Shown here: one piece after another, positions 11,456 to 31,290 of the stretch | How positions within the stretch are numbered: the first letter of the stretch is position 1 | Layout of the letters: each line of letters opens with the position of its first letter | From: Comamonadaceae bacterium | GTDB lineage: Bacteria; Pseudomonadota; Gammaproteobacteria; Burkholderiales; Burkholderiaceae_C | Direction of reading: 5' to 3' | Length of the DNA: 64,000 nucleotides | NCBI GenBank assembly: GCA_027484105.1 | Contig: JAIXUG010000001.1 | Span: 27,599-91,598 of the forward strand | The notes under the pieces: model-generated | Databases searched by the model: none | What the model was told of the DNA's origin: nothing | Seen by the model: only the letters and a program-made list of their open reading frames with translations | Translations under genes and position numbers: made by a program

Positions 11456-12166
11456 ATGATCAACAAGTTTGTTTCTTCCGTCAGCGAGGCGCTGGCGGGC
11501 ACGGCCGACGGCGCCACGGTGATGATTGGCGGGTTTGGCACCGCAGGCATTCCCGATGAACTGATTGAGGGCCTGCTGGCCCAAGGGGCACGCGACCTCA
11601 CCTTGGTCAACAACAATGCGGGCAACGCCGAGCAAGGCTTGGCGGCTTTGCTCAAGGCGGGGCGGGTGCGCAAAATCATTTGCAGTTTTCCACGGCAAAC
11701 CGACTCCTATGTGTTCGATGGTTTGTACCGTTCGGGCCAGGTCGAGCTGGAATTGGTGCCCCAGGGCAATTTGGCCGAGCGCATCCGGGCCGCCGGCGCA
11801 GGCATTGGCGGGTTTTTCACGCCCACGGGGTATGGCACCGATCTGGCCAAGCACCCCGATGGCTCGCCCAAAGAGACGCGTGAAATCGATGGCCGCATGT
11901 ACGTGTACGAAACGCCCATCCATGCCGATCTGGCCCTGATCAAAGCCGAACGCGGCGACCGCTGGGGCAACCTGACCTACCGCAAGGCAGCGCGCAACTT
12001 TGGCCCCATCATGGCCATGGCGGCACGCAAAACCGTGGCCACGGTGCACGAGCAAGTGGCCTTGGGCGAGATGGACCCCGAGACCGTGGTCACGCCCGGT
12101 ATTTTTGTGCAAGCGGTGGTCAAGATCGACCGTGTGGCCACGCAGGCCGGAGGCATCAAGGCATGA
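11456..12166 (+). CDS. 3-oxoacid CoA-transferase subunit A
   Basis: 'GGFGTAGIPDELI' and overall ScoA/PcaI/AtoD-like sequence. ATG at 11456; an in-frame TTG at 11447 is an alternative start. Confidence 0.9.
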   Translation: MINKFVSSVSEALAGTADGATVMIGGFGTAGIPDELIEGLLAQGARDLTLVNNNAGNAEQGLAALLKAGRVRKIICSFPRQTDSYVFDGLYRSGQVELELVPQGNLAERIRAAGAGIGGFFTPTGYGTDLAKHPDGSPKETREIDGRMYVYETPIHADLALIKAERGDRWGNLTYRKAARNFGPIMAMAARKTVATVHEQVALGEMDPETVVTPGIFVQAVVKIDRVATQAGGIKA

Positions 12167-12807
12167 GCTACACCCGACGCAGCAAAGACGAATTGGCCGC
12201 CCGCGTGGCGCAAGACATTCCCGAGGGGGCCACGGTGAACTTAGGGATTGGCCAGCCCACCTTGGTCGCCAACCACATTCCGGCCAGCCGCGAGGTGCTC
12301 TTGCACAGCGAAAACGGCATCCTGGGCATGGGCCCGGCACCGGCCAAAGGCCTGGAAGATTACGACCTGATCAACGCGGGCAAACAGCCGGTGACTTTGT
12401 TGCCGGGTGGCGCGTATTTTCACCACGCCGACAGCTTTGCCATGATGCGCGGCGGGCACCTGGACATCTGCGTGCTGGGCGCGTTTCAGGTCAGCGCCAC
12501 CGGCGATCTGGCCAACTGGCACACCGGCGAGGCCAATGCCATTCCCGCCGTGGGCGGTGCCATGGACTTGGCGGTGGGGGCCAAGCAAACCTGGGTGATG
12601 ATGGACCTGCTGACCAAACAAGGACACAGCAAATTGGTGCCCGCTTGCAGCTATCCGCTGACCGGCATTGGCTGTGTCAAACGCGTTTACACCGACCTGG
12701 CCACTTTTGCCTGCACACCGCAAGGGTTGGCGGTGATCGATGCCGTGGATGGCCTGAGCCTGGACGCACTGTCCGAGCTGGTGGGTTTGCCTTTGCGGAT
12801 GGCTTGA
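12163..12807 (+). CDS. 3-oxoacid CoA-transferase subunit B
   Basis: The catalytic-Glu motif 'SENGILGMGP' is present. The start overlaps the subunit A stop (ATGA). Confidence 0.9.
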   Translation: MSYTRRSKDELAARVAQDIPEGATVNLGIGQPTLVANHIPASREVLLHSENGILGMGPAPAKGLEDYDLINAGKQPVTLLPGGAYFHHADSFAMMRGGHLDICVLGAFQVSATGDLANWHTGEANAIPAVGGAMDLAVGAKQTWVMMDLLTKQGHSKLVPACSYPLTGIGCVKRVYTDLATFACTPQGLAVIDAVDGLSLDALSELVGLPLRMA

Positions 12808-12837
12808 AGCGGGCCCCTTCAAGCCACGGCCACAGGC

Positions 12838-13413
12838 TCAATGCGGAAACGGCGCAATGCCCGGCGCAGCGTTGTCGGGCAAATCACGCCGCGTGGTGTT
12901 CATCACCATCGCCAGCAAGCTGTAGTAGCCGCAGTGCGCCGTCATGTCGATGACACCTTGGTCGCCAAACATCTTTTGCGCAGCCGCCCAGGTCACATCG
13001 CTCACCGACTGGTTGTGCAGCAGTTCCTGCAAGAAGTCGTACACCATGGTTTCTTCAGCCGTCATGTGGGGCGGGCGGCGGCCTTCGGCAATCGCATCAC
13101 AGGTTTCTTCGCTCACACCTGCTTTCATGGCGATGGGTTTGTGGATGTGCCACTCGACCGGTTGCGACCAGTGGCGCGCCACCACCAGCACCGCGAACTC
13201 CGAGTTGTGCAAACCCACGGAGTTGTCGTAGCGCAGGTATTCCCCCACCTTTTGCAGGCGGCGCATCAGCTCGGGGCTGCGCATCAAGGGCACAAAGGGG
13301 CCCGAGAGTTTGCCGCGCGGCCCGCTGACGAGTTCGTCCACCGCGGCGCGTTGGGCCTCGGTCATTTGTTCACGCGGGATTTCGGGCAGGCGGTCGGTTT
13401 TGGGTGCGGTCAT
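12838..13413 (-). CDS. Carboxymuconolactone decarboxylase (AhpD-like) family protein
   Basis: A 191-aa all-helical protein with CMD-family character. This is a family-level call only. Confidence 0.65.
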   Translation of the reverse strand: MTAPKTDRLPEIPREQMTEAQRAAVDELVSGPRGKLSGPFVPLMRSPELMRRLQKVGEYLRYDNSVGLHNSEFAVLVVARHWSQPVEWHIHKPIAMKAGVSEETCDAIAEGRRPPHMTAEETMVYDFLQELLHNQSVSDVTWAAAQKMFGDQGVIDMTAHCGYYSLLAMVMNTTRRDLPDNAAPGIAPFPH

Positions 13414-13483
13414 CGGGCTGTCTCTTGGGGTGAGGGGCGGGTTGAAAGATCAAGCCCCAATTTATCACCGGACCTGACGACGA

Positions 13484-14236
13484 TCAGTCGTGTGCGGGAT
13501 AGCCCGGTGGCGCCACCGCCGCGCCCTGGATCTGGTGGCGCACAAAGGCCTCGGCCACCCAGCCCGACTGTTTGGCGTCCTCCACAAAACCGTTCAGCCA
13601 TTGCCGCGCTGGTTCGCTGCGCTGTGCGGGCATGCCCATGGCCTGGTGAATGACCATGAAGCGGCCTGGCAGCAGCCGCACGCCCGGCAGGCGCTGCGCG
13701 TCGGCTTCCAATTGTTGCTTGACGCCTGCAGCCACCTCGAGTTGCTGCGCCAGGAACACATCGACCACCGCAGGCGAGCTGGGCGCGCGCACGATGGTGG
13801 CTTGTTTCAGCTGGCGCGTCAGGTACAAATCGTAGGCACTGCCTGCGCCCACCGTGACGCGCTGGCCAGGCTGATCGACCTGATCGTTGCTTTGCAAGGG
13901 CGAGTCGTTGCGCACCATGTAGGCGCCTTCGATTTGCACATAAGGCGGCGAAAAATGCAGACCCTCGCCGCGCAGCGGGTCGATGGCAAAAAAGCCGATG
14001 TCGGCTTCGTCGGCACGCACGCACTGCACAGACGCATCGGCTTTCTTGAAAACACGCCATTCAATGCCCAGGCCCAGCTGGGCCGCCAGTTTGCGCGACA
14101 GGTCGGCCGAAATGCCCGAGGGTTCGCCGGCTGCGTCGAGCCCGGCGAGCACCGGGTTGCCCAGGTTGATGGCCACGCGCAAGACGCCGTGGGGTGCGAA
14201 CTGATCGGCCAAAGTGTTTGCAGCTGCAGAGTTCAT
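13484..14236 (-). CDS. Type-3 solute-binding-protein-like domain protein with no recognisable signal peptide
   Basis: 'VLRVAINLGNPVLAG' and overall SBP_bac_3-like sequence. Only ATG 14236 or 14275 fit before the upstream gene, and neither gives a signal peptide. Confidence 0.6.
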   Translation of the reverse strand: MNSAAANTLADQFAPHGVLRVAINLGNPVLAGLDAAGEPSGISADLSRKLAAQLGLGIEWRVFKKADASVQCVRADEADIGFFAIDPLRGEGLHFSPPYVQIEGAYMVRNDSPLQSNDQVDQPGQRVTVGAGSAYDLYLTRQLKQATIVRAPSSPAVVDVFLAQQLEVAAGVKQQLEADAQRLPGVRLLPGRFMVIHQAMGMPAQRSEPARQWLNGFVEDAKQSGWVAEAFVRHQIQGAAVAPPGYPAHD

Positions 14237-14328
14237 GGGGTCTAGGGAAAATGAACGAAAAAAACCTGCACCCATTTTAAAAACCGAGCCGTGCAGTTGG
14301 CTGACAGCCTCCTGTCGGGGATGACGCC

Positions 14329-15027
14329 TCAGCCCAAGACTTGGAGCACCGCCGTCAAATCCCGCCCGGTGTGGTGAGGTGCGGGCCCGATGGCTTCGGG
14401 TGGCAGGCCCTGGCGGTTGACCCACAGGGTGGTGAAGCCAAACCAGGTCGCGCCCATCACATCCCAGGCGTTGCTCGAGACAAACAACACTTCGGCGGGT
14501 GCAAGCCCAAAGTGGTCGGTCACGATTTGGTAGCTGGTGGGCGTGGTTTTGAACTGGCGCACGCTGTCCACCGACAGCACCGCGTCCAGGCATTCACCCA
14601 TGCCCGCACTGTGCACGGCCGAGGCCAGCATCTCGGGGCTGCCGTTGGACAAAATCGCCGTGGCCATGCCCCGCTCGCGCAAAGCTTGCAGTACCCCCAG
14701 GTTTTCTGGAAAAGCCGTGAGCTCGGCGTACTGCGCCATCAGCGCTTCTTCATTCGCGTGGGTGTGCACCAGGCCCAAACGCGCCAGCGCATACCGCAGC
14801 GACAAGCGCGTGATGTCCCAAAACGACTGGTAATGCCGGCTGCCTTGAGGACTCGGATCGCTCAGCGAAATCAGCCGCGTGTACTCGATTTGCTTGTCTC
14901 GCCAGAGCACCGACAGGGCCGCGCCTTGTCCGGGGTAGAGCCGCTCGGCGAGGGCGCCGATCGAGTACATATCGAACAAGGTGCCATAGGCGTCGAAGAC
15001 CACGGCTTGGATGGTGGTCTTGCTCAT
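14329..15027 (-). CDS. Haloacid dehalogenase type II (HAD superfamily)
   Basis: HAD motif I 'VVFDAYGTLFD' and type II dehalogenase-like length (232 aa). Confidence 0.85.
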   Translation of the reverse strand: MSKTTIQAVVFDAYGTLFDMYSIGALAERLYPGQGAALSVLWRDKQIEYTRLISLSDPSPQGSRHYQSFWDITRLSLRYALARLGLVHTHANEEALMAQYAELTAFPENLGVLQALRERGMATAILSNGSPEMLASAVHSAGMGECLDAVLSVDSVRQFKTTPTSYQIVTDHFGLAPAEVLFVSSNAWDVMGATWFGFTTLWVNRQGLPPEAIGPAPHHTGRDLTAVLQVLG

Positions 15028-15109
15028 GCCCGGTGCGCGGTTTTCAAGAGAACCAAACAGTTTTCGGGGTGTAAGGGCAGGTCTTGATGCATTGCAGGAT
15101 TCAAGGCGT

Positions 15110-17473
15110 TCAGGTTTTCAAAACCACCGGCTCCAGCGCATCGGCTTGTGCGTTGATGCGGCCAATGATCGCTGTGTGCGCGTAACCTGCGTCCTTCAAG
15201 GCCTGCACACAGGCCGCCGCTTGTGCGGCAGGCACGCTGGCCAGCAAACCGCCTGCGGTTTGCGGATCGAACAGCAGCGGGTAGCGCGGGTCTTGCACAA
15301 AGTCTTCGGCATTGCGCAAGGCGCGACGCAAGCGCACATTGGCGGGCTGCAAAGAGCTCACGATGCCCGCTTTGACGCAGTCCACCGCGCCGTCGAGCAG
15401 GGGTAGCTGGCTCAGCTGCAACTCGGCGTCCACGCCCGAGGGGCGCGTCATTTCCACCAAATGGCCCAGCAGACCAAACCCCGTGAGGTCGGTACAGGCC
15501 GTGGCGCCGTGGTGGCGCAAAATTTGAGCGCCTGCCTGGTTGGATTGCACCATCGACTGCAGCGCGGCCGCGATCCAGCGGCCCTTGGCAGCCGCTCGGG
15601 CGTGCGCGGCAAACAGCGTGCCGGTGCCCATGGGTTTGGTCAGCAGCAGCAGATCGCCGGCTTGCATGCCGCCCTTGCGCATCACGCCGCTCATCTGCTC
15701 GTCGATCAGGCCATTGATGGCAAAGCCCAAGGCCAACTCGGCCCCCTCGCCCGTGTGCCCGCCCACCAGCGCGCAGCCTGCGGCGTTCAGCACCTCCATG
15801 GCCCCGCCCATCATTTGCTTGAGCAGGTCTTCCACCTTGCGCTCCAGACCCGGCGGCACCGTGACGACCGCGGTGGCGCTTTGCGGCTCAGCCCCCATGG
15901 CAAAGATGTCACCCAGTGCGTGGTTGGCCGCCACCTTGCCAAACAGGTAAGGGTCGTCGATGAACGAGCGGAAAAAGTCCACGGTGTGCACCATGGCCAT
16001 GCCCGGTGGCACGCGCACCACGGCCGCGTCGTCGGGCGAATGCAGGCCGATCAAGACGTCGGAACGGTCCACCGGCTGCAACGACCCCAAGGCGCGAGAC
16101 AAGACATTGGCACCGACTTTGGCCCCGCAGCCGCCACAGCGCATGGCGATGGCCGAAATGGCTTGCAGCGATTCCTCAGAGCTCAAACTCAGGCGTGTGG
16201 TCGGGGCCTTGCCCTGCACCTGGATGTCCCTGAGCAGTTGCCCCATGGCGCGCACAGCTTCGCGCAAATTGGCCCCGGGTGAAACGCCGCCTGTGTGAGG
16301 CATGGCGGGCCACTCGCTGAAGCGCCGCATGAAATGGCGGTCGATCCGGTCTTTCCAACGCCAGACCCATTCACCACCAAAACCCAAGGCACCGCGAGAC
16401 CCGACGGCATACCGGTTGCCCGTGGATATCAAGGCCAGCCAATGCTGCTGGGGTGTATAGGCCTTCAGTTTTTGACCCCGCAGGCTGCGACGCAAATTGT
16501 CGGCCAAGGGCTTGGCCATGCGCACCGCGAACACGCCGGCTTTTTCCAGGGGGCGCTCGACAAACGAGGCCACATCGCCGGCCGCAAAAACCAAGGGGTC
16601 ATTCAAGCTCTGCAACTGCGGATGGACCAGGATGAAGCCTTGGGGGTCCAGTGCCAGCCCTGTGCTTTGCAGCCAGGCAGGCCCTCCGGCTTGTGTGACC
16701 CACATGGTTTCGTCGGCGTCAAAGGTTCGTCCATTGCGTGTGTGAAGGCAGCCTGGCGAGACTTGCACCACTTCAGCGTGGGTGTGCACTTCGACGTTGC
16801 GCTCTTGCATCACTTGCGCAAAACGTGCGCGCACGCCCGGGTTGTGGGTGGGCAAAATCGAATCGCCAGAGGTCAAGAGCACAAACTTCAGGTCTTCAGG
16901 GTTGCGCCCCAGGGCTTTGAGCTCAAGGCGCAAGCGGTATTGCATCGACAAGACCAGCTCGACCCCGCCAGCGCCGCCGCCCACCACCGCGATCGTCATG
17001 CGCCCCCGGTGGGAAGGCCATTGCCGCGCTTTGTCCAGCAGGGCCAACCAGCGCTGGTTGAATTGCGCAATGGGTTTGACGGGGGTGGCCAGGGCTTGCG
17101 CACCTTCGATGTTTTGCACCTGGGGTGTGGAGCCGGTGTTGATGGACAGCAGGTCGTAGGCCACGGGTGGCCGGTGTGCACAAATCACCTGTTGGTTCTG
17201 GCGGTCAATGCCCACCACTTCATCGCGGTACAAGCGGGCACCGGCAAATGCGCACAGGCGACCCAGGTCGATGTGCACCTCGTCAAAGCTGTAGTGGCCC
17301 GATATATAGCCGGGCAGCATGCCCGAGTAGGGGGTGTCGATGTCGGTGCAGATGACGGTGATGCGCACCCCGGGCTCGGGGTTCATGGCGAACATGCGCA
17401 GCACGCCCACATGGCTGTGGCCACCGCCGACCAGCACCAGGTCGCGCAACACGGGTTGGTTGATGGATTGCAT
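15110..17473 (-). CDS. selD: Bifunctional FAD-dependent pyridine nucleotide-disulfide oxidoreductase / selenide, water dikinase (SelD; SenC-like)
   Basis: N-terminal 'LVLVGGGHSHVG' flavoprotein domain (the 'N-term-to-SelD' family). C-terminal SelD/AIR-synthase fold with the N-loop 'RCGGCGAKVG' (catalytic Cys and Lys retained) and 'VGGHTGEG'. Confidence 0.9.
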   Translation of the reverse strand: MQSINQPVLRDLVLVGGGHSHVGVLRMFAMNPEPGVRITVICTDIDTPYSGMLPGYISGHYSFDEVHIDLGRLCAFAGARLYRDEVVGIDRQNQQVICAHRPPVAYDLLSINTGSTPQVQNIEGAQALATPVKPIAQFNQRWLALLDKARQWPSHRGRMTIAVVGGGAGGVELVLSMQYRLRLELKALGRNPEDLKFVLLTSGDSILPTHNPGVRARFAQVMQERNVEVHTHAEVVQVSPGCLHTRNGRTFDADETMWVTQAGGPAWLQSTGLALDPQGFILVHPQLQSLNDPLVFAAGDVASFVERPLEKAGVFAVRMAKPLADNLRRSLRGQKLKAYTPQQHWLALISTGNRYAVGSRGALGFGGEWVWRWKDRIDRHFMRRFSEWPAMPHTGGVSPGANLREAVRAMGQLLRDIQVQGKAPTTRLSLSSEESLQAISAIAMRCGGCGAKVGANVLSRALGSLQPVDRSDVLIGLHSPDDAAVVRVPPGMAMVHTVDFFRSFIDDPYLFGKVAANHALGDIFAMGAEPQSATAVVTVPPGLERKVEDLLKQMMGGAMEVLNAAGCALVGGHTGEGAELALGFAINGLIDEQMSGVMRKGGMQAGDLLLLTKPMGTGTLFAAHARAAAKGRWIAAALQSMVQSNQAGAQILRHHGATACTDLTGFGLLGHLVEMTRPSGVDAELQLSQLPLLDGAVDCVKAGIVSSLQPANVRLRRALRNAEDFVQDPRYPLLFDPQTAGGLLASVPAAQAAACVQALKDAGYAHTAIIGRINAQADALEPVVLKT

Positions 17474-17578
17474 TCTTGGGCTGTTCAGGTTGTGCTGGAG
17501 TTCAGGGGTGCATGACGATGGGGCTTGCGGCCATGTCTTGAGTGTGCCACCAGTTGAAAAGGGACTGGGTGGTTTTTG

Positions 17579-17611
17579 CTGTTCTGATGTAACGTATTGA
17601 CTTCAGAACAG
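17579..17611. promoter_or_regulatory. Perfect 9-bp inverted repeat in the selD / rSAM divergent promoter region
   Basis: 'CTGTTCTGA-N15-TCAGAACAG'. The AT-rich spacer contains a -35-like TTGACT. The repeat ends 28 nt before the rSAM ATG. Confidence 0.45.
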
Positions 17612-17638
17612 ACCGCCGCTTGATCAGGAACCCCCGCG

Positions 17639-18640
17639 ATGCACCCCACTTTGCCACTTTTGAGAGCGACCGACTTTCCGCCCATCCGCCGCAAAACCCT
17701 CGACACCTTGCAGGTCAATCTGGGCTACAAATGCAACCAGAGCTGTCTGCATTGCCATGTGGGCGCCGGCCCCAACCGCACGGAGATGATGGATGCGGCC
17801 ACAGTCGAGTCGGTCCTGGCGGTTTTGGCTCGGCGTCAGATTCAGACGCTGGATTTGACCGGGGGGGCGCCAGAGCTCAACAGCGAATTCCGGTCTTTGG
17901 TGGCGCGCGCGCGCGCCCTGGGGGTGCGCGTGATCGACCGCTGTAACCTCACCATTCTCAGTGAGCCTGGGCAAGAAGACCTGGCCGAATTCTTGGCTGC
18001 GCACCAAGTCGAGGTCACGGCATCTTTGCCCTGCTATTCGCCCGCCAATGTCGACCGACAAAGAGGTGATGGGGTTTTCGAGCGCAGCATTGCGGGGCTC
18101 AAGCAACTCAATGCCTTGGGATATGGTCAGGCTTCACGTCCTGAGCTTGTCCTGAATCTGGTTTACAACCCGCAAGGGCCCTCTTTGCCGCCGCCTCAGA
18201 CCGCCTTGCAGGCGGATTACAAGCGAGAGCTGCTCGCGCATTTCGGCATCCATTTCAACCACCTGTTTGCCTTGACCAACATGCCGGTGCAGCGTTTTGG
18301 CAGCACCTTGGTGAGCAAAGGCCAATTTGCAAGCTACATGCAGTTGCTGCGCAGTGCTTACCGTCCAGAAAATCTGGACACGGTCATGTGCCGCACCCTC
18401 ATCAGCGTGGATTGGCAAGGCTTTTTGTACGACTGCGATTTCAACCAGATGTTGGGGATGCCTTCACCCAGCGCGAGCGCCAAGCCAGCCCGCATTGAAG
18501 ACCTGTTGTCTTGGGAGGTGACGGAGCAGCCCATTGCCATTGCGGACCATTGCTATGGCTGTACCGCGGGTCAAGGCAGCAGTTGCGGCGGGGCTTTGGA
18601 AGACCCGCCAGCCCGGGTGGCGCAGTTGTCCCCGTCATGA
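17639..18640 (+). CDS. arsS: Radical SAM/Cys-rich domain protein, ArsS-like (TIGR04167-type), Cys form
   Basis: rSAM cluster motif 'CNQSCLHC'. The C-terminal Cys-rich motif is 'HCYGCTAGQGSSCGG'. From memory, some homologues carry Sec in this motif. Confidence 0.85.
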   Translation: MHPTLPLLRATDFPPIRRKTLDTLQVNLGYKCNQSCLHCHVGAGPNRTEMMDAATVESVLAVLARRQIQTLDLTGGAPELNSEFRSLVARARALGVRVIDRCNLTILSEPGQEDLAEFLAAHQVEVTASLPCYSPANVDRQRGDGVFERSIAGLKQLNALGYGQASRPELVLNLVYNPQGPSLPPPQTALQADYKRELLAHFGIHFNHLFALTNMPVQRFGSTLVSKGQFASYMQLLRSAYRPENLDTVMCRTLISVDWQGFLYDCDFNQMLGMPSPSASAKPARIEDLLSWEVTEQPIAIADHCYGCTAGQGSSCGGALEDPPARVAQLSPS

Positions 18641-19342
18641 GTGCCGCCAACCTTGGCTGAACCCATGCGATCGCCTTTGTGCATTGTGCTGCCGGTGCTG
18701 AACGAAGCGGCCACCCTGGAGGCCACGTTGCAAAGCCTGGCGCCCTTGCGCCTGCGCGGCGCTGCTGTGGTGGTGGTGGATGGCGGCAGCACCGATGCCA
18801 CCATGGACTTGGCCCGCCCCCATGCCGATGTGGTGATGGCCTCTGCGCGCGGTCGCGCGGCCCAAATGAACGCGGGGGCGGCCTTGGGCCGGGGTGATGT
18901 GCTCTTGTTTTTGCATGCGGACACCACCTTGCCCGACCAGGCCGACCGATGCGTCACGCAAGCGCTGGCCGCAGGCCATGCCTGGGGGCGATTTGATGTG
19001 CGCATCGCCGGCAGCCACTGGATGCTGCCGGTGGTGGCCACCCTGATGAACAGGCGCTCGCGCTGGACGGGCATCGCCACGGGCGACCAGGCCCTGTTCA
19101 TGCGCCGTGAGGTGTTTGAGCACCTGGGGGGCTTTGCCGCGCAAGCCCTGATGGAAGACATCGAGATGTCCAAGCGCTTGCGCGATTGGGGGGCACCCGC
19201 TTGCATCCGCCAACCGGTGCGCACTTCCGGGCGACGTTGGGAGCAGCACGGCGTGTGGCGCACCATTTTTTTGATGTGGCGCTTGCGCTGGCGTTACTGG
19301 CGTGGCGAGTCGCCCGATCGATTGGCACAGGACTACCGATGA
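18641..19342 (+). CDS. GT-A family 2 glycosyltransferase-like protein ('transferase 2, rSAM/selenodomain-associated' type)
   Basis: 'IVLPVLNEA...VVVVDGGSTD...FLHADT'. A GTG at 18641 directly abuts the rSAM stop; an ATG at 18665 is an alternative start. Confidence 0.8.
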   Translation: MPPTLAEPMRSPLCIVLPVLNEAATLEATLQSLAPLRLRGAAVVVVDGGSTDATMDLARPHADVVMASARGRAAQMNAGAALGRGDVLLFLHADTTLPDQADRCVTQALAAGHAWGRFDVRIAGSHWMLPVVATLMNRRSRWTGIATGDQALFMRREVFEHLGGFAAQALMEDIEMSKRLRDWGAPACIRQPVRTSGRRWEQHGVWRTIFLMWRLRWRYWRGESPDRLAQDYR

Positions 19343-19986
19343 GTGTGGCCTTGATCATTCTGAGCAAAGCCCCTGTCGCCGGGCTGGCCAAAACCCGTTT
19401 GATCCCGGCCCTGGGTGCGCAGGGCGCAGCCGACTTGGCTGGGCAGCTCTTGCTGCACGCGGTGCAACAGGCCCTTCAAACCCCGTTTGAGCACCTTGAG
19501 CTGTGCGTCAGCCCGGAAGTCGCTCACCCGGCGTTTGCGCAAGCAAAAGCCCTCGCGCCAGGTCGTTTGCATTGGACGGCGCAAGGCGAGGGTGATCTGG
19601 GTGCGCGCATGCACCGTGCTTTGCTGCGGCGGCTGGTGCATGAGCCATCGGTGTTGCTCATGGGCACGGATGCACCGGGCCTGAGCGCCGACGTGTTGAA
19701 GGCTGCCGCGCGGGCCTTGGACTGCAACGATGCGGTGTTCGTGCCTGCCTGTGATGGAGGGTATGCCTTGGTGGGTTTGCGTCGCCCTTGTCCGGGTTTG
19801 TTTGAAGGCATGGCATGGAGCACCCCGCAGGTCATGGCTGAGACACGCCTTCGGGCCCGAGCGGCCGGCTTGTGCTGGCAAGAGCTCGACCCGGTCTTTG
19901 ACATGGATGAGGCGTCCGATTTGCACCATCTGCCGCCGGATTGGCCCGGCCGAGACCTTTTGTTGAAAGCCCCAGCGACGCCATGA
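19339..19986 (+). CDS. DUF2064 / CofC-like nucleotidyl- or glycosyl-transferase ('transferase 1, rSAM/selenodomain-associated' type)
   Basis: N-terminus 'MSVALIILSKAPVAGLAKTRLIPALG'. There are ATGA overlaps with both neighbouring genes. Confidence 0.8.
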   Translation: MSVALIILSKAPVAGLAKTRLIPALGAQGAADLAGQLLLHAVQQALQTPFEHLELCVSPEVAHPAFAQAKALAPGRLHWTAQGEGDLGARMHRALLRRLVHEPSVLLMGTDAPGLSADVLKAAARALDCNDAVFVPACDGGYALVGLRRPCPGLFEGMAWSTPQVMAETRLRARAAGLCWQELDPVFDMDEASDLHHLPPDWPGRDLLLKAPATP

Positions 19987-20951
19987 ACGTCCCATCCTCT
20001 GCAGGCCGCAGCTGCCCCTTGCATTACCAATACGGCCCCGACGTGTTTTGTTCGGCCCCTGATCCGTGCTTGAGCGATTTGGAGACGCTGTACCTTGTGG
20101 GGGGGCTGTATGGCAACGAACTGGCGCTGCACGAGGTGTTGCGCTTGTTTGCGCAAGAAACCGGACGCAAGCGCCTGGTGTTCAATGGCGACTTCCATTG
20201 GTTCGACACCGACCCGGCCACTTTTGCACGGGTTCAAGCGGCCGTGCTCCAGCATGTGGCTTTGCGGGGCAACGTCGAAACCGAATTGGCCGACAGCCAG
20301 CCCGACCCCGATGCGGGTTGCGGCTGCGCCTACCCCGACTGGGTGGGGCAGGAGGTGGTGTCGCGCTCCAACCGCATCCTGCAGCAATTGCGCACCGCCA
20401 CCACGCCGCAGCAGCGCCAGCAACTGGCGGCCTTGCCCATGTGGCGGGTGGCGCAAGTGGGCCGCATGCGTGTGGGTGTGGTGCATGGCGATGCCCAGTC
20501 CTTGGCGGGCTGGGGCTTTGCCCAGGAACACTTGCGCCAGCCCGAGCAACGTGAGCAGGTCAGGCGCTGGTTTGAACGGGCGCAAGTCCAGGCCTTTGCC
20601 AGCTCTCACACCTGCTTGCCGGTGTTCCAGCAAGTGAAGGTGCCCGGGCAGACCCAACCCGCATGGGTGCTCAACAACGGCGCTGCGGGCATGCCCAACT
20701 TTCAGGGCGATCTGTCGGGTTTGTTCACACGCATTTCGGTCCTGCCTTTTGAGGGGCCGCAACAAAGGTGCAGCGTGCAAGCCCACGGGCTGCACTTGCA
20801 AGCCATCGCCATCGAAACCTCTGCCGAGCAAGTGCAGCAGCGCTTTTTGCAGCAGTGGCCCGAAGGTTCCGACGCACACGCGTCTTATTTTTCGCGCATC
20901 GCGGCAGGCCCTGCTTACCGCGAAGCCGATGTCATTCGCTGGGAGACCTGA
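19983..20951 (+). CDS. Calcineurin-like metallophosphoesterase-fold protein with degenerate metal-binding motifs
   Basis: Motif series 'LVGGLYGN' (in place of DxHG), 'FNGDFHWFD', 'LRGNVE' (in place of GNHE), 'VVHGD' and 'SSHTC'. It is translationally coupled to its neighbours. Confidence 0.6.
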   Translation: MNVPSSAGRSCPLHYQYGPDVFCSAPDPCLSDLETLYLVGGLYGNELALHEVLRLFAQETGRKRLVFNGDFHWFDTDPATFARVQAAVLQHVALRGNVETELADSQPDPDAGCGCAYPDWVGQEVVSRSNRILQQLRTATTPQQRQQLAALPMWRVAQVGRMRVGVVHGDAQSLAGWGFAQEHLRQPEQREQVRRWFERAQVQAFASSHTCLPVFQQVKVPGQTQPAWVLNNGAAGMPNFQGDLSGLFTRISVLPFEGPQQRCSVQAHGLHLQAIAIETSAEQVQQRFLQQWPEGSDAHASYFSRIAAGPAYREADVIRWET

Positions 20952-20953
20952 CC

Positions 20954-21799
20954 ATGTTGGCCATCATCGGAGGCACGGGCCTTTATGAACTGCCGGGCTT
21001 GCGCATCACGCAACGCCTGAACGACGGTACGCCCTTTGGCCAAGCCTCGGGCGAAGTGCTGCGCGGTCAGTACCACGACCAAGAGGTGCTGTTTTTGGCG
21101 CGCCACGGCAGCGGCCACCGCCTCCTGCCGCACGAGGTGAATTACCGCGCCAACATCTTCGCCCTCAAGCAAGCCGGGGCCACGCAGTTGCTCGGCTTTT
21201 CGGCGGTGGGCAGCCTGAGTCTGGAGGTCAAACCCGGCGACATGGCCATGCCCGAGCAGTACTTTGACTGGACACGGGGCCAACGCGAGCGCACTTTTTT
21301 TGGGCAAGGCGTGGCCGCCCACGTGTCCACCGCCAAGCCCGTCAGTGCGGGCCTGGTGGATGCGGTCTCCAATGCCGCGCAGCGCTGCGGCCTGTCGGTG
21401 CACCGCGGCCTGACCTATGCCTGCGTAGAAGGACCGCGCCTGGGCACGCAGGCCGAGAGCCATTTCTTGCGGCAAGCCGGTTGCCACCTGGTGGGCATGA
21501 CCAATGTGCCCGAGGTCTTCTTGGCCCGCGAAGCCCAGATGGCCTATGCCACCGTGGGCCTGGTCACCGACTACGACTGCTGGTTGGACGACCCGGCGCA
21601 GCACGTCAGCGTGTCCGGCATTTTTGAGCTCTATGGCAAAACCCTGGCCAAGGCCGGGCAGGTGCTCGACGCTTTGCTGTCCGCCCCTTTGCCAGCGCCG
21701 GATGCGGACAGCCGACAAGCCTTGGCCAGTGCCATGCTCACGCCCGATGCCGCTTTGTCTCCCGAGCAGGCGCAGTGGCTGGCGGTTTTGCGGCGCTGA
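20954..21799 (+). CDS. MTAP-family 5'-deoxy-5'-substituted-adenosine/inosine phosphorylase
   Basis: 'MLAIIGGTGLYELPG', 'FLARHG.GH', 'GMTNVPEVFLAREA', 'TDYDCW'. The start lies 2 nt after the upstream stop. Confidence 0.85.
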   Translation: MLAIIGGTGLYELPGLRITQRLNDGTPFGQASGEVLRGQYHDQEVLFLARHGSGHRLLPHEVNYRANIFALKQAGATQLLGFSAVGSLSLEVKPGDMAMPEQYFDWTRGQRERTFFGQGVAAHVSTAKPVSAGLVDAVSNAAQRCGLSVHRGLTYACVEGPRLGTQAESHFLRQAGCHLVGMTNVPEVFLAREAQMAYATVGLVTDYDCWLDDPAQHVSVSGIFELYGKTLAKAGQVLDALLSAPLPAPDADSRQALASAMLTPDAALSPEQAQWLAVLRR

Positions 21800-21803
21800 G
21801 TCC

Positions 21804-22778
21804 TCAAGAGTCGATGAGGTCTTGCACCCAGCGGTGCAGGGCGGCGCGCTCGGCCTGTGGTTCAAACAAGGGCGCGCGCAAAGCGCATTGGTTTTCAAGC
21901 TGTGCCATCAGCGCCGGGCCGCCAGCCGCGTCGCGGCAAGCCAGCAGCCGTGCGGCCAGGCCCTGCGCGTCTCCAGGCTCGAACACGCCGGTGTAATCCT
22001 CGCCCAGCAGGCCCATGTTGCCGTCGATGCGCGAGACCAGCACGGGGGTGCCGCTGCAAATGGCTTCCATCAGCACATGCGCGCCGCCCTCCATGCGGCT
22101 GGTGTGCACCAGCAAGTGGGCGCGCTGGATGCGCTGCAGGGTTTGGCGGTGCGGCAAGGCACCCAGCCAGCGGTAATGCGGGCATTGCGCTTGTGTGGCT
22201 TGCGCGGCTTGGCCCAGCGCGGCATCAAGAGGCGCGCCGATGTGGTCGATCAGGATGCCGCTGTCCGCAGGCAACAAGCGGGCGGCAGCCATCAGGGTCA
22301 GGGGGTCTTTTTCGTCACGCAAGTGGCCCACCATCACCACGCGCAGGTGGCGTGCAGTTTTGGTCAGGTGTTGGCGGGTCAGCGTGGATTGGTAGATCAC
22401 GCGGGCCTTGGCTTGGAGCGCTGGGGACAGTTGGTGAAGGCCCAGCCCTTGCAGCACCACCAGCGATGAGGCCAGTTGCAAGGATTGCTGGGCCATCGCG
22501 TCATGGGCAATGTCGCGGTACAGGTCGGTACCCGTGAGGACCAAGCCCAAGCCGTGTCCACCGTGTTGTTTGTGCCAAGCCAATACGGCGTCTGCCGAGC
22601 GACGGGCATGCAAGGCCAACATCACCTCGTCGGCTTGCGCCAGGGCATCGGGCCATTGCTGCACGATGCGCACACGGTGTGGCCACAGCAGGCGCTGCCA
22701 GCGACGTGCCGTTTGCCAATTGCCATTGTTGGCGGCGGCCAAGGCAGGGCTGACAATCACAATGCGCAGAGATTTCAT
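21804..22778 (-). CDS. senB: GT-B glycosyltransferase, SenB-like selenosugar synthase (TIGR04348-type)
   Basis: 'MKSLRIVIVSPALAAANNGNWQTARRW...' followed by the second Rossmann half 'LRVVMVGHLRDEKDP'. The family call is from memory of SenB/TIGR04348. The selD context supports it. Confidence 0.7.
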   Translation of the reverse strand: MKSLRIVIVSPALAAANNGNWQTARRWQRLLWPHRVRIVQQWPDALAQADEVMLALHARRSADAVLAWHKQHGGHGLGLVLTGTDLYRDIAHDAMAQQSLQLASSLVVLQGLGLHQLSPALQAKARVIYQSTLTRQHLTKTARHLRVVMVGHLRDEKDPLTLMAAARLLPADSGILIDHIGAPLDAALGQAAQATQAQCPHYRWLGALPHRQTLQRIQRAHLLVHTSRMEGGAHVLMEAICSGTPVLVSRIDGNMGLLGEDYTGVFEPGDAQGLAARLLACRDAAGGPALMAQLENQCALRAPLFEPQAERAALHRWVQDLIDS

Positions 22779-22952
22779 GAGGGTTTTATAACCGAGCACC
22801 CGGATCCGCAGTGTGGACCAGTGGCATTGAAAACCCCTTGTGCAGCAAGATCAATTTCATACTTTGTAAGCAGGAATGGACCAAAGATGCATCATCTGCA
22901 CTGCGATGGTTCGGCAATCAATTCCCCTTTTTAAATTCGGATAAAACTGATT

Positions 22953-22969
22953 GAATGAATTTTTCATTC
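22953..22969. promoter_or_regulatory. 17-bp palindrome in the senB / RND divergent intergenic region
   Basis: 'GAATGAA-TTT-TTCATTC', followed ~10 nt later by a -10-like 'TAGAAT'. The surrounding region is AT-rich. Confidence 0.4.
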
Positions 22970-23025
22970 TGCTTTTTGTAGAATATCGACCTTCCATGCG
23001 ACTCACATATACCCAGGACCATCCC

Positions 23026-25562: not shown

Positions 25563-25574
25563 CAAGGACTCACC

Positions 25575-28664: not shown

Positions 28665-28679
28665 ATTTGGAGTTTGTTG

Positions 28680-29009
28680 ATGAAAGAAGTACGAGCCATC
28701 ATTCGCCCCAACCGTCGCGAGCGTTTGCGAGAAGCTTTGCGGGCCATCCCCAATTTTCCAGGTGTTTCCATGTTCAGCGCGCAGGGCTTCACAGCCCCGG
28801 CGTCTGTCGATAAACGCAGTGTGCGTGACGAGTTGACCGACTTCACAGAGAAGTTCATGGTTTGCGTTTTGTGTCCCGATGACATGGTGGAAACCATTCG
28901 TGAAACCATCATCAAATCGTGCAGCACCGGTCAAATCGGCGATGGCTTGGTCTGGGTGCTGGACGTGGCCACAGTGCACCGCATCCGCAACAGTGAGCCC
29001 ATGGCCTGA
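28680..29009 (+). CDS. PII-like (GlnB-superfamily) small protein with a divergent T-loop, RND-associated
   Basis: It aligns by eye with the GlnK in this window: 'MKEVRAIIRP...' versus '[10 protein letters not shown]', and 'TGQIGDGLVWVLDV..VHRIRN' versus '[20 protein letters not shown]'. The 'YRGAEY' T-loop is absent. Confidence 0.75.
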   Translation: MKEVRAIIRPNRRERLREALRAIPNFPGVSMFSAQGFTAPASVDKRSVRDELTDFTEKFMVCVLCPDDMVETIRETIIKSCSTGQIGDGLVWVLDVATVHRIRNSEPMA

Positions 29010-29083
29010 TGCCATCTTCCGCAGGACTGCGACATGATCGGCCTGCTTGAGTCCTGGCGTGTTCAGGCCCAATCATTTTCAAG

Positions 29084-30241
29084 GTGGCGGAGCCTCTGAT
29101 CAACCCCTCTCGTACATCAGGATCGGCGGCATTGGCTGCAGCATTGCTCGCCACCCGCCAACGCACACTCGGTCTGATGCAGGCTTGGCAAGCGGCATTG
29201 CCCGATCTGGCTGTGCCACCCTCACCCGGCATGAATCCGCCTCTTTGGGAGTGGGGCCACATCGCCTGGTTCCAAGAGTGGTGGACAGTGCGCAACCGCC
29301 AGCGCCACGAAGGCATTCGCAGTGCATCGTCAGGCGATGGCTTCGCCCCCTCGCTCATGCCGCATGCCGACGCACTGTACAACTCCAGTGAAGTCGCCCA
29401 CGACAGCCGCTGGTCGCTGGCCCTGCCCGACTTTGAACACACCCAAGGGTATTTGTCTGACGTGCTGGCACACAGCTTGGCGCATTTGCAGGCCACGCCC
29501 GATGCCAGCGATGAGGCCCTGTACTTTTGGCGGCTCGTTCTGCAACACGAGGCCATGCACAACGAAGCCTCGGTTTACATGGCACAAGACCTCGGTCTGG
29601 CTGTACCCGAAACCCTGTGCGTTGGGCACACGCACACGGCGCATCCCGGTGCCGACACCCCGCTGCACCTGCCTGCCCAAGAGTGGACCTTGGGTCACCA
29701 CGGGCCCGGCTTTGCGTTTGACAACGAGTGTCTTGCCCACACTGTCCGTTTGCAGGCCTTCGACATCGATGCGAATGCGGTGACTTGGTCCCAATACCTG
29801 CCGTTTGTGCAGGCCACGGGCTATGCCCTGCCGCCGCACGTGCGTTGCGAACAAGGCGTTTGGCAAATGCGTCGCATGGGCGCTTGGCGAACGATGGACC
29901 CCCAGGCGCCCGTGGTGCATGTGAATGCGGTGGATGCCCAGGCCTGGTGCGAATGGGCTGGCAGGCGTTTGCCCACCGAGGCCGAATGGGAGTGTGCCGC
30001 ACACGCCACGGGTTTTGTGTGGGGCCAGGTGTGGGAGTGGACCGCCAGCGACTTCGCGCCTTACCCGGGTTTTGTGGCCCACCCCTACCGCGACTACTCC
30101 GAACCCTGGTGGCACGACCACCGTGTGCTGCGCGGCGCTTGTGCCGCCACTTCAGCCCATCTGATGGATGTGCGTTACCGCAACTTCTTTGCACCGCAGC
30201 GGCGGGACATCTTTGCAGGGTTCCGGTCGGTGGCGCTTTGA
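29084..30241 (+). CDS. senA: EgtB-family sulfoxide/selenoxide synthase (DinB_2 + FGE-sulfatase domains); SenA (selenoneine synthase) candidate
   Basis: 'WEWGHIAWFQEWW', the iron-binding motif 'LQHEAMHNE', and C-terminal 'RLPTEAEWE', 'VWEWTASDF', 'RGACAATS', 'YRNFF'. The GTG start at 29084 is uncertain. Confidence 0.75.
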   Translation: MAEPLINPSRTSGSAALAAALLATRQRTLGLMQAWQAALPDLAVPPSPGMNPPLWEWGHIAWFQEWWTVRNRQRHEGIRSASSGDGFAPSLMPHADALYNSSEVAHDSRWSLALPDFEHTQGYLSDVLAHSLAHLQATPDASDEALYFWRLVLQHEAMHNEASVYMAQDLGLAVPETLCVGHTHTAHPGADTPLHLPAQEWTLGHHGPGFAFDNECLAHTVRLQAFDIDANAVTWSQYLPFVQATGYALPPHVRCEQGVWQMRRMGAWRTMDPQAPVVHVNAVDAQAWCEWAGRRLPTEAEWECAAHATGFVWGQVWEWTASDFAPYPGFVAHPYRDYSEPWWHDHRVLRGACAATSAHLMDVRYRNFFAPQRRDIFAGFRSVAL

Positions 30242-30248
30242 GCGATTT

Positions 30249-31217
30249 TCAGGCCTGCGCCCAAAACACCGCGAAACGCTCGGCCGGGTCCGTCCAAAAC
30301 TCGGTGCTGGCAAAACCGGCTTGGCGCAGCAAAGCACCAAAGTCAGGCACGCGCCACTTGTAAGCGTTCTCGGTGTGGATGGTCTCGCCCGCAGCGAACG
30401 CGCGCTCGCCGCCAGGCCAGCGCACGGTCAGGGCTTGGCGTGCCTGCAGGTGCATCTCCACCCGCGATTGGACCGCGTTGAACCGCGACAGGTGTTGCCA
30501 GTCGCGCACCGCAAAGTCGCTGCCCACCAAGCGGTTGATGTGCAGCAACAAATTCAAATCGAAAGCGGCCGTCACACCCAAAGCATCGTCGTAGGCGGCT
30601 TCCAGCTCGGCGGGGTCTTTGAGCAAATCCACTCCGATGAACAAACCGCTGCCCGGCGCCGTGCCGCAACAGGTGTGCAGTTGGCGCAAAAACACCAGTG
30701 ACTCATTCGGCGTGAAGTTGCCGATGCTCGAACCTGGGTAGAACAGCACCCGCGGCTGTGCCGGGTCCAAGCCGAGCGCTGGCGGCAAGCTCAAGCCCGA
30801 AGAAAAGTCCAAGCCCACCCCCGCCATGGGCAAATCGGGGTATTGGCGTTGCAAACACGCGAGCGCGTGGCGCAAAAAATCCACCGAGATGTCCACCGCC
30901 ACATAGCGCCCCGCGGAGAACGCCCCCAACAAGCGCCCGGCTTTTTCGCAATTGCCAGCCCCCAAATCAATCCAGCAAGCCGCAGACGGCAAACGCGCGA
31001 TCATGGCCGGTGTGTGCAAGCCCATGGCCTGCGCCTCGTTGCGCGTGACGTCGTATTCCGGCAGCTCGGTGATGGCCTCGAACAGGCGCGAGCCCAATGC
31101 GTCGTAGAGGTATTTGGGCGAAGTGAAGGCCTGCGGGGCGCTCAAGCCCTGAAGGAGTTCCTGCGCCACGGCGGCGGCGTTGTGTTGGTACAGCTGGATG
31201 AATTGGGGTGTGGTCAT
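30249..31217 (-). CDS. egtD: L-histidine N-alpha-methyltransferase (hercynine synthase) EgtD
   Basis: 'SPKYLYDALGSRLFEAITELPEYDVTRNE', 'YPGSSIGNF', 'DDALGVTAAFDLNLL'. These are EgtD/Methyltransf_33 signatures. Confidence 0.9.
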   Translation of the reverse strand: MTTPQFIQLYQHNAAAVAQELLQGLSAPQAFTSPKYLYDALGSRLFEAITELPEYDVTRNEAQAMGLHTPAMIARLPSAACWIDLGAGNCEKAGRLLGAFSAGRYVAVDISVDFLRHALACLQRQYPDLPMAGVGLDFSSGLSLPPALGLDPAQPRVLFYPGSSIGNFTPNESLVFLRQLHTCCGTAPGSGLFIGVDLLKDPAELEAAYDDALGVTAAFDLNLLLHINRLVGSDFAVRDWQHLSRFNAVQSRVEMHLQARQALTVRWPGGERAFAAGETIHTENAYKWRVPDFGALLRQAGFASTEFWTDPAERFAVFWAQA

Positions 31218-31290
31218 GTGGCGATGCTAACCCGTGGCATTGATTCTGTGCATCGATGGCCGAGTTCAGCGAGCGCCGTGGCCCGTCGGG

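Follow-up and report, generated by a model that had tools for sequence, protein, structure and literature searches.

An Ndh-SelD fusion gene, the only selD of a Limnohabitans-like genome, and the putative reductive role of its flavoprotein half

The fusion gene and its neighborhood

The window analyzed here is a stretch of 64,000 nucleotides from a Comamonadaceae genome that is Limnohabitans-like, 3.1 Mb in size and 100% complete by marker genes. Positions 15110..17473 on the minus strand carry a single open frame of 787 codons plus a stop, without any internal stop codon. The NCBIfam profile search identified in this uninterrupted ORF both TIGR03169 ("Nterm_to_SelD"; residues 11-385, 501.5 bits against a cut-off of 310) and TIGR00476 (selD; residues 444-751, 294.7 bits against a cut-off of 125), and the Pfam domains found in the protein are Pyr_redox_2 (residues 11-305), AIRS (481-589) and AIRS_C (604-776). 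The product can thus be divided into an N-terminal NDH-2-like FAD/NAD(P)H flavoprotein domain (residues 11-385; 16319..17443, minus strand), delimited by the TIGR03169 match, the NDH-2 matches and the fold, an interdomain linker (residues 386-443; 16145..16318, minus strand), and a SelD (selenide, water dikinase) domain (residues 444-787; 15113..16144, minus strand), delimited by TIGR00476, the match to E. coli SelD and the fold. The initial annotation had described a 787-aa ORF that joins a flavoprotein N-domain to a full SelD, which the two matches above cut-off confirm, and the motifs it had picked out (VGGGHSHVG, VVGGGAGGVE and RCGGCGAK) are all found in the translation.

Full-length homologs with 79-92% identity, annotated as SelD, occur in Limnohabitans and its relatives, and at least 7998 proteins in a large protein collection match the fusion at E<=1e-20. 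Fusions of a COG1252-like domain with SelD have long been known (PMC2432076, PMC2398784, PMC4561486). Because both halves exceed the curated cut-offs, the catalytic loop and the ATP-site aspartates are kept, and the fusion is abundant and documented in Zhang 2008 and Mariotti 2015, we are very confident that the gene product is an Ndh-SelD fusion, the C-terminal half of which is, to judge from its sequence, a complete Cys-type selenophosphate synthetase. The fusion is therefore an already known system, first described in 2008, and the gene is an ordinary member of the family, which it also matches in coming from an aquatic host.

Upstream of the fusion gene, across a divergent spacer (17474..17638) recognized from the cassette position and the gene order of relatives, lies an ArsS-type radical-SAM cassette (17639-21799, plus strand), which stands between the fusion gene and senB (21804..22799, minus strand; TIGR04348, 416 bits, cut-off 300), the gene of the selenosugar synthase and a selenophosphate client. 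The selenoneine synthase gene senA (29084..30241, plus strand; NF041186, 455.8 bits, cut-off 420) and egtD, encoding the histidine N-alpha-methyltransferase (30249..31217, minus strand; TIGR03438, 329.9 bits, cut-off 290.9), follow further on; SenB, SenA and EgtD share a 16-kb island with the fusion, SenB at a distance of 4.3 kb and SenA at 11.6 kb. In close relatives (loci L032, L033 and L036) senB ends immediately before the fusion gene, hence the cassette looks like an insertion between the two. Since it separates senB from the fusion here, the spacer must hold selD's own putative promoter; a crude consensus scan reported no consensus promoter in 17474..17638, and the Rfam search reported no RNA families in positions 12000-32000.

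On the other side, the fusion gene is followed by genes for a type II haloacid dehalogenase-family HAD hydrolase (14329..15027, minus strand; TIGR01428, 219.1 bits, cut-off 125.4) and an SBP_bac_3-family protein (13484..14236, minus strand; PF00497, 48.7 bits). The same scan, too crude for operon structure, detected no terminators in the selD-HAD and HAD-SBP gaps. Contigs from four runs of freshwater metatranscriptomes cover parts of selD, HAD, SBP and arsS with 92-100% identity, bearing in mind that RNA-library assemblies can stem from DNA; one contig of 536 nt takes in the last part of the N-domain together with most of the linker, and no contig in the four runs bridges positions 15045-15103 between selD and HAD. 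Among 51 related loci, the HAD gene is found near the fusion in one and the SBP gene in two. A functional link of either protein to the fusion is unlikely, since both follow it only in the closest Limnohabitans relatives.

The SelD half, the flavoprotein half and their predicted docking

E. coli SelD (3u0o) matches the C-terminal domain of the fusion with an E-value of 2e-49, and a structure search with the predicted model returned SelD structures as fold matches. The HMMER alignment to 3u0o places C449 at Cys17, A451 at Cys19, K452 at Lys20 and C446 at Gly14, in agreement with the earlier reading of a loop that retains Cys17 and Lys20 and has Ala at the Cys19 position. This active-site loop, C446-G-G-C449-G-A-K452 (CxxCxxK), is encoded at 16118..16138 on the minus strand. 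The same alignment indicates that the motifs at the ATP/metal sites are retained (DDAAV, TVDFF, AANHALGDIFAMG and CTDLTGFG); the ATP/metal residues of the E. coli enzyme we take to be Asp51, Asp68, Asn87, Asp91 and Asp227. As the SelD half alone, used as a query, returned only fragments of fused genes, unfused controls were drawn from 30 genome loci. In a set of 92 fused representatives, 90% have Cys at the position of C446 and 85% at that of C449, whereas in each of the 30 canonical unfused SelDs examined the loop reads G-[C/U]-G-C-K and lacks a Cys at -3. Judged by these sequences, only the fused clade carries the CxxC motif; its presence in the active-site loop of Ndh-SelD has been reported previously (PMC2398784).

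The closest solved sequences to the N-domain are those of NDH-2 (YjlD, E=5e-17; C. thermarum 4nwz, E=4e-15), and the predicted model matches the NDH-2 fold with a target-normalized TM of 0.87-0.89 and an rmsd of 2.2-2.6 Å over ~385 columns. The motifs GGGHxH and GGGAGGxE are invariant in the N-domain family, and the fused-family alignment reveals no conserved Cys in the N-domain. The residues aligned to the AQxAxQ motif of NDH-2 read G313-V314-F315-A316-V317-R318, with V314 and R318 in the places of Q317 and Q321, and K374 aligns with I379 of the C. thermarum quinone site; V314, R318 and K374 are invariant across the family. From the alignment, the quinone pocket is apparently rebuilt with invariant basic residues, with the FAD and NAD(P)H motifs intact, and the N-domain falls outside the NDH-2 family. 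The model ends this domain with a conserved amphipathic helix (residues 368-386), after which come the linker and SelD.

The full-length model has a pLDDT of 93.1 and a pTM of 0.91, with the lowest confidence (pLDDT 55-68) in the linker, which is poorly conserved (alignment A2) and is modeled as two helices (residues 403-420 and 432-442). When the halves were folded as separate chains, the docking score was 0.88, versus 0.01 for the best control. Of 80 solved complexes 58 score as high, as do 2 of 110 mismatched pairs; these counts are only approximate here, since a custom alignment was used and FAD was included, and the docked chains are two halves of one polypeptide. The docking runs share at least 93% of contacts, with a partner pLDDT of at least 88, and the CxxC loop lies outside the confidently predicted interface. 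The flavoprotein and SelD halves are accordingly predicted to dock rigidly; among the sequence and fold matches no solved structure contains both domains. The predicted NDH-2 fold, the Val/Arg/Lys replacements in the pocket and the modeled fixed docking of the halves are what the present analysis adds.

Selenium traits of the genome and of related loci

The profile search of the genome's contigs found a single SelD. Over the whole genome, SelA had no match, SelB none above the cut-off and tRNA-Sec none above the gathering score. An intact SelU (tRNA 2-selenouridine synthase) is encoded on another contig (G000:C9:26414-27325), in an open frame of 371 aa with a TIGR03167 score of 356.2 bits against a cut-off of 219.75. 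An orphan SelD is defined as one in a genome that has neither the Sec nor the SeU trait (Zhang et al. 2008, PMC2432076), so the label "orphan", which the initial annotation had applied, does not hold: SelU is present and only the Sec trait is missing. As the only SelD in the genome, the fusion must supply SelU as well as SenB/SenA/EgtD. It had also been called an entry gate for two downstream branches, sen and radical-SAM. The former is trivially true, the fusion being the sole SelD and SenB requiring selenophosphate (Kayrouz et al. 2022, bioRxiv 10.1101/2022.04.13.486033); the latter is unsupported, as only 2 of the 51 related loci have ArsS at a distance of up to 6 kb from the fusion, versus 27 for SenB, and SelU, a third client, had been overlooked.

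In a sample of 251 Pseudomonadota genomes, the fused form occurs in 13 of the 61 genomes with SelD; SelU accompanies it in 12 of these 13 (adjacent in 8) and SelA in one. TIGR03169 scores above its cut-off in 18 genomes of the sample and is fused to SelD in 13 of them. Stand-alone members are found far from selD, one of them in a genome (G220) with no SelD match; downstream of three stand-alone N-domains (P0142, P0158 and P0186) no SelD start was seen within 280-600 nt, the contigs being short. The fusion is the SenC of selenoneine clusters, beside senB in most relatives, and among the relatives' loci the fused form is the usual SelD adjoining senB. In another genome of the same family (G027), senC is unfused and its loop is the canonical GGGCGCK.

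Proposed function and relationship to known systems

The explanation we favor, with a probability of roughly 60% for the whole, is that the gene encodes an Ndh-SelD fusion which is the sole SelD of the genome, with clients, and in which the flavoprotein half acts reductively. That the flavoprotein may provide SelD with selenium in reduced form has already been put forward by Zhang et al. (2008, PMC2432076), and a supply of reduced selenium to SelD is the most likely mechanism, at somewhat less than even odds. In this mechanism the flavin of the N-domain would be reduced by NAD(P)H and would in turn reduce oxidized selenium, most plausibly a selenotrisulfide or selenenylsulfide on the C446/C449 loop, so that the selenide or perselenide substrate would be generated within the enzyme, in oxic water. 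The proposal fits the domain anatomy. The NDH-2 fold, the invariant GGGAGGxE, the altered pocket (V314/R318/K374), the CxxC of the fused clade, the confident model and the docking all speak for a reductase.

The absence of the CxxC loop from the confident interface, the stand-alone TIGR03169 members far from selD and the genome with such a member and no SelD match speak against reductive supply, as does the functioning of V. paradoxus-type SenC and of E. coli SelD without a flavoprotein domain (Kayrouz et al. 2022, bioRxiv 10.1101/2022.04.13.486033). Since the N-domain has no conserved Cys, S-Se or S-S bonds would have to be reduced by the flavin directly, an unusual chemistry. The searchable literature reports no experiment on this domain. 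In a more speculative version, which we regard as possible but rather doubtful, the fusion would be a self-contained machine from selenite to selenophosphate: a Cys446-S-Se-S-Cys449 bridge would be formed from selenite or Se(0), reduced at the R318/K374 flavin site and the product phosphorylated with ATP, free selenide never being released. If true, aerobic aquatic bacteria would possess in this fusion a physiological system that donates selenium to SelD.

The flavoprotein could instead serve the maintenance of the active site, re-reducing with NAD(P)H a protective C446-C449 disulfide, while selenide comes from elsewhere; the O2-sensitive catalytic Cys would in this way stay active in aerobic aquatic bacteria. 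The restriction of CxxC to the fused clade, the prominence of fused forms in aquatic, mostly aerobic taxa (see also PMC2398784) and the predicted rigid docking of the two domains agree with such a role, but the N-domain has no conserved Cys through which electrons could pass to the disulfide, the basic pocket (R318, K374) points to a small anion, and not a peptide loop, as its ligand, and the loop is outside the confident interface, which makes this role unlikely. An oxidative function like that of SQR, in which selenide is oxidized and Se(0) is loaded on Cys449 as a perselenide, or excess selenide is detoxified, was prompted by SQR structures being the second-best fold matches (target-normalized TM 0.72-0.79), one of them a sodium selenide complex, and by weak sequence similarity to the SQR 3hyv (E=5e-5). 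We rejected it as very improbable: the N-domain is nearer to NDH-2 than to SQR in both sequence and fold, it lacks conserved cysteines and thus the SQR-type catalytic ones, and its second Rossmann motif, of the NAD(P)H type and with an invariant Glu, favors a reductase.

It is hardly credible, and the least probable of the readings considered, that the N-domain is an ordinary respiratory NDH-2 (NADH:quinone oxidoreductase) that became joined to SelD fortuitously or tethers it to the membrane. The NDH-2 fold over ~385 columns and the amphipathic helix would agree with this; however, the AQxAxQ glutamines and the quinone-site Ile are exchanged for invariant V, R and K, the N-domain family is curated separately, in 13 of the 18 sample genomes that score above its cut-off it is joined to SelD, and the predicted docking interface is specific. 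Scarcely more probable is an orphan SelD dedicated to small molecules, gating the sen and radical-SAM branches and co-transcribed with HAD and SBP. The divergently adjoining ArsS-type cassette and the selD-HAD gap without a terminator detected by the crude scan would be in its favor, but SelU is present, ArsS, HAD and SBP are each near the fusion in only one or two of the 51 loci, and the cassette looks inserted where close relatives have senB directly 5' of the fusion. Reductive supply thus remains our preferred reading of the flavoprotein half.

The family bears on the in vivo source of reduced selenium for SelD, notably in aerobic cells; in ocean metagenomes Ndh-SelD makes up ~40% of the Cys-type SelDs (PMC2398784). 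The gene adds no new type of system. Being clean and typical, it lends itself to assays of the flavoprotein half, for which the rebuilt pocket (V314, R318, K374), the predicted docking surface and the CxxC loop offer specific residues of interest for mutation.

With canonical single-domain SelD (E. coli 3u0o, A. aeolicus 2yye) the fusion shares the equivalents of Cys17 and Lys20, the ATP/metal Asp residues and the AIRS fold, but the identity is only ~33-37%, TIGR00476 gives ~295 bits as opposed to 410-452 bits in canonical proteobacterial SelDs, and the second Cys of the loop is at -3 (CxxC) instead of +2 (CGC). The oxidoreductase/SelD-related fusions of TIGR04369 ("fusion_not_SelD") have the N-domain and an AIRS-fold C-domain in common with it; membership in this family was rejected (whole-protein score 468.6 bits, cut-off 700), and the Cys/Lys loop kept in the 787-aa fusion is absent from the TIGR04369 SelD-related forms. 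NDH-2 (C. thermarum 4nwz, B. subtilis YjlD) resembles the N-domain in its fold, its FAD/NAD(P)H Rossmann motifs and the Glu after the second GxGxxG, whereas in the fusion AQxAxQ is lost (Q317->V314, Q321->R318), I379 is replaced by K374, the first motif reads GGGHxH, and the C-terminal region runs on into linker and SelD, apparently in place of a membrane anchor. SenC of the senABC cluster from Variovorax paradoxus (Kayrouz et al. 2022) is likewise a SelD that feeds SenB; the characterized SenC is apparently a plain single-domain SelD, as inferred from residue numbering (PMC11929427), while the SelD analyzed here is of the fused CxxC type and has SelU to serve as well. Compared with a typical Ndh-SelD, the essentials are identical, and the differences are that HAD and SBP genes shared only with the closest relatives come after the fusion and that an ArsS-type cassette here splits off senB.

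Fusion protein and active-site loop

The 787-codon gene at 15110..17473 (minus strand) is a single open frame encoding an Ndh-SelD fusion, here called P0001, whose nearest homologues carry Limnohabitans names. Pfam assigns Pyr_redox_2 to residues 11-305, AIRS to 481-589 and AIRS_C to 604-776, while in NCBIfam residues 11-385 (the N-domain) belong to TIGR03169 'Nterm_to_SelD' (501.5 bits, cut-off 310) and the SelD equivalog TIGR00476 covers residues 444-751 (294.7 bits, cut-off 125). Membership of TIGR04369 'fusion_not_SelD' was rejected (468.6 bits, cut-off 700). The HMMER alignment with E. coli SelD (3u0o, E=2e-49) pairs C449 with Cys17, A451 with Cys19 and K452 with Lys20, and sets an additional cysteine, C446, opposite Gly14; the motifs of the ATP/metal residues, which we take to be Asp51, Asp68, Asn87, Asp91 and Asp227 in the E. 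coli enzyme, are preserved in the SelD half. All motifs quoted in the initial annotation are present, its E. coli loop numbering (Cys17 and Lys20 kept, Ala at the Cys19 position) is borne out by this alignment, and its sequence-level observation is correct.

The fusion is genuine, and an ordinary one, its family being both known and abundant. Full-length P0001 has at least 7998 protein matches at E<=1e-20, and an exhaustive search with the N-domain yielded 9642 clusters (50% identity) at E<=1e-3; among the best 150 of these, 91 are of fused length (690-830 aa) and 29 of stand-alone length. The name Ndh-SelD comes from Zhang and Gladyshev 2008 (PMC2398784), who found that in ocean metagenomes it accounts for ~40% of the Cys-type SelDs; fusion to an NADH-oxidoreductase (COG1252) is one of the top links of SelD in Zhang et al. 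2008 (PMC2432076) and by far the commonest SelD fusion in Mariotti et al. 2015 (PMC4561486).

In 92 aligned fused-length sequences (the 91 from the best 150 clusters and P0001) the loop consensus is M-R-C-x-G-C-[GA]-[ASG]-K, with Cys in 90% at the C446 column and in 85% at the C449 column. In all 30 canonical unfused proteobacterial SelDs compared the loop is G-[AG]-G-[C/U]-G-C-K, and position -3 is never Cys. The CxxC was reported in the SelD active site of every fusion and of <5% of single-domain SelDs (PMC2398784), an observation that ours reproduces and to which it adds nothing. The same fused-length alignment revealed no conserved Cys in the N-domain (C74 in 49%, C98 in 37%).

About 12 fused-length sequences are without the loop, and in the ten scanned (P0126, P0128, P0129, P0137, P0138, P0151, P0162, P0171, P0216 and P0218) the N-domain is strong (426-505 bits) and the SelD-like domain, lacking the Cys/Lys loop, is weak and N-terminally truncated (TIGR00476 below 150 bits; three of these domains gave no match within the limit of 1e-30); they also fall under the TIGR04369 cut-off. 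By N-domain, the window gene has P0126, P0128 and P0129 among its closest relatives. Two other fused SelDs, P0174 (MRCGGGGSK) and P0267 (IRCGGGSAK), keep the -3 Cys, and in both the catalytic Cys17 position is occupied by Gly.

Selenium traits and genomic neighborhood

The host genome (3.1 Mb, 29 contigs, rated 100% complete) encodes exactly one SelD. Searches of it returned no match to SelA, nothing above cut-off for SelB and nothing above the gathering score for tRNA-Sec; an intact tRNA 2-selenouridine synthase (SelU; 371-aa frame; TIGR03167, 356.2 bits, cut-off 219.75) was found on another contig, C9. An orphan SelD is one from a genome with neither the Sec nor the SeU trait (Zhang et al. 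2008, PMC2432076). As the SeU trait is present, the designation 'orphan' in the initial annotation is refuted, and the fusion is the sole selenophosphate source for SelU in this genome.

Among 251 Pseudomonadota genomes, SelD was found in 61 and is fused in 13 of them (frames of 704-854 aa; TIGR00476 263-313 bits vs 410-452 for canonical SelDs). Genomes with a fused SelD contain SelU in 12/13 cases (adjoining the fusion in 8), SenB in 3/13 and SelA in 1/13, counts that carry no statistic, since 8 of the 13 genomes belong to one taxonomic family and few independent lineages are represented. We also compared the 80 genome loci that match the N-domain best, and the fusion is present in every one with enough sequence. 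Fifty-one of these loci extend at least 5 kb to either side of the fusion; the genes found within 6 kb of it there are SenB (27), SenA (16), EgtD (13), ArsS, SelU and SBP (2 each) and HAD (1). The fusion gene is the SenC-equivalent of the selenoneine cluster; its HAD and SBP neighbours are specific to the lineage.

The end of senB directly precedes the fusion gene in L032, L033 and L036, the closest relatives. In the window, a 4.2-kb cassette of the ArsS type (17639-21799), encoded on the other strand and divergent from selD, stands between them; by this comparison it has the look of an insertion that has broken up a senB-selD unit. The cassette's radical-SAM gene (TIGR04167, 464 bits) is accompanied by a glycosyltransferase gene (TIGR04283), a further gene (TIGR04282), one ORF without a family match and an MTAP-like phosphorylase gene (20768-21799, plus strand; TIGR01694 268.1 bits, just below the cut-off of 274.85), the annotated start of which is probably too far upstream. 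Beyond it lie senB (TIGR04348, 416 bits), a CusA/CzcA-type RND efflux set (22951-28664, plus strand: OMF, MFP and a 1029-aa pump, TIGR00914 1098 bits) and then senA (NF041186, 455.8 bits) with egtD (TIGR03438, 329.9 bits).

selD is followed on its own strand by a HAD gene of the type II haloacid-dehalogenase family (TIGR01428, 219 bits) and one for a protein with a family match to SBP_bac_3, in which no signal peptide is evident from the ATG at 14236. A consensus scan found no matching promoter or terminator around the fusion gene. By eye, an inverted repeat (CTGCAC...GTGCAG) with a T run after it can be seen in the HAD-SBP gap (~14258-14300, minus strand), possibly a weak terminator not reported by the scan. 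Freshwater metatranscriptome contigs overlap parts of selD, HAD, SBP and arsS, and none spans the selD-HAD gap. A 191-aa ORF (12838-13413, minus strand) without Pfam or NCBIfam match has a 95% identical counterpart in L033, the nearest of the relatives, there too after the SBP gene. Elsewhere in the window, a 720-aa protein (2796-4958, plus strand) combines a membrane domain of VTT/DedA type (residues 70-184) with a class-I pyridine-nucleotide-disulfide oxidoreductase that includes a dimerisation domain and is akin to MerA and Lpd, and its gene is followed by a DUF3047 gene (4886-5698).

Stand-alone N-domains and docking of the two halves

TIGR03169 scores above cut-off in 18 of the 251 genomes, and in 13 of the 18 it is fused to SelD. 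The view that this family is known mainly from fusion to, or adjacency with, SelD thus holds broadly but not absolutely: three stand-alone copies lie far from selD in SelD-bearing genomes, and one (G220) occurs in a genome without a SelD match. A stand-alone copy from the same taxonomic family as the host (genome G027, L145 7396-8613, minus strand; TIGR03169 318.7 bits, 35% identity to the window N-domain) is located 1.6 kb downstream of an unfused senA-senB-senC, with the canonical SelD loop GGGCGCK, which suggests that the flavoprotein may also work in trans with SenC. In one genus (G159/G183; L144, L147) one species has the fusion, and in its congener SelD is unfused (loop GGCAAK, 349.5 bits) and adjoins selU, with a stand-alone N-domain gene ~645 kb away; the difference could reflect a fission or replacement event.

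When the halves were folded as separate chains together with FAD, they docked with a score of 0.88 (best control: 0.01), a mark reached by 58/80 solved complexes and 2/110 mismatched pairs, counts that are only rough here because our own alignment was used and the ligand was present. Contact agreement between runs was at least 93% and partner pLDDT at least 88; parts of the same natural polypeptide would be expected to associate to some extent. None of the solved structures matched by sequence or Foldseek contains both domains, so the result is unlikely to be a memory of a solved complex. The confidently predicted interface comprises residues 7-11, 37, 45-46, 69-83, 101-105 and 388 of the N-domain and 506-509, 540-557 and 624-635 of SelD, and does not include the CxxC loop. 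In 33 stand-alone N-domains the fused-type majority residue is kept at a frequency of 0.41 at the interface vs 0.53 elsewhere, and R101, for example (89% in fused forms), is not conserved; from so few sequences this is a weak hint. At the level of sequence and model, the analysis shows an intact SelD and a predicted NAD(P)H/FAD domain whose pocket is not of the quinone type, with a predicted fixed docking of the two.

Fold and possible role of the flavoprotein half

Among solved proteins, those of the NDH-2 type are nearest to the N-domain in sequence (YjlD of B. subtilis, E=5e-17; 4nwz of C. thermarum, E=4e-15). An AlphaFold2 model of the full-length protein, built from 76 homologues (mean pLDDT 93.1, pTM 0.91), is uncertain only in the linker 391-440; in Foldseek its C-terminal half retrieved SelD structures, and residues 1-385 matched NDH-2 (TM 0.87-0.89, target-normalised; rmsd 2.2-2.6 A). 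The second dinucleotide motif, GGGAGGxE, is invariant, and the first reads GGGHxH. The HMMER alignment pairs A316-Q317-x-A319-x-Q321 of C. thermarum with G313-V314-F315-A316-V317-R318, and I379 (mutated in 5kmq) with K374; V314, R318 and K374 are invariant in fused and stand-alone members. The C. thermarum motif and I379 are presumably quinone-site residues, as the 5kmq entry title also indicates. The basic pocket of the N-domain would suit an anionic acceptor.

We favor, at a probability of roughly 0.45, a reductive supply of selenium: the NAD(P)H-reduced flavin would reduce an oxidised selenium species, most plausibly held on the C446/C449 pair, and perselenide or selenide would be handed to the kinase site, the toxic, oxygen-labile selenide not being released. 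The same cysteines could instead form a protective disulfide that the flavoprotein re-reduces, a distinctly less probable role. An SQR-like function in oxidative loading or detoxification seems improbable; SQR ranks second by fold for residues 1-385 (TM 0.72-0.79, Foldseek on the model) and its sequence match is far weaker (E=5e-5). There is little to recommend the initial annotation's version, an orphan SelD gating the sen and radical-SAM branches, given the SeU trait of the genome, and least of all an ordinary NDH-2, near as it is in sequence and fold, given the rebuilt pocket.

Reductive selenium supply is not a new idea: it was published in 2008 and is still a proposal. The literature searched, with subscription journals mostly outside it, yielded no experiments on the N-domain. 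The rebuilt pocket and the docking-surface residues are modest additions that can guide its biochemistry. The motifs and the pattern of pocket residues suggest that, like NDH-2, the N-domain would keep the NAD(P)H/FAD half-reaction, but that, unlike NDH-2, it lacks the quinone site of that family.
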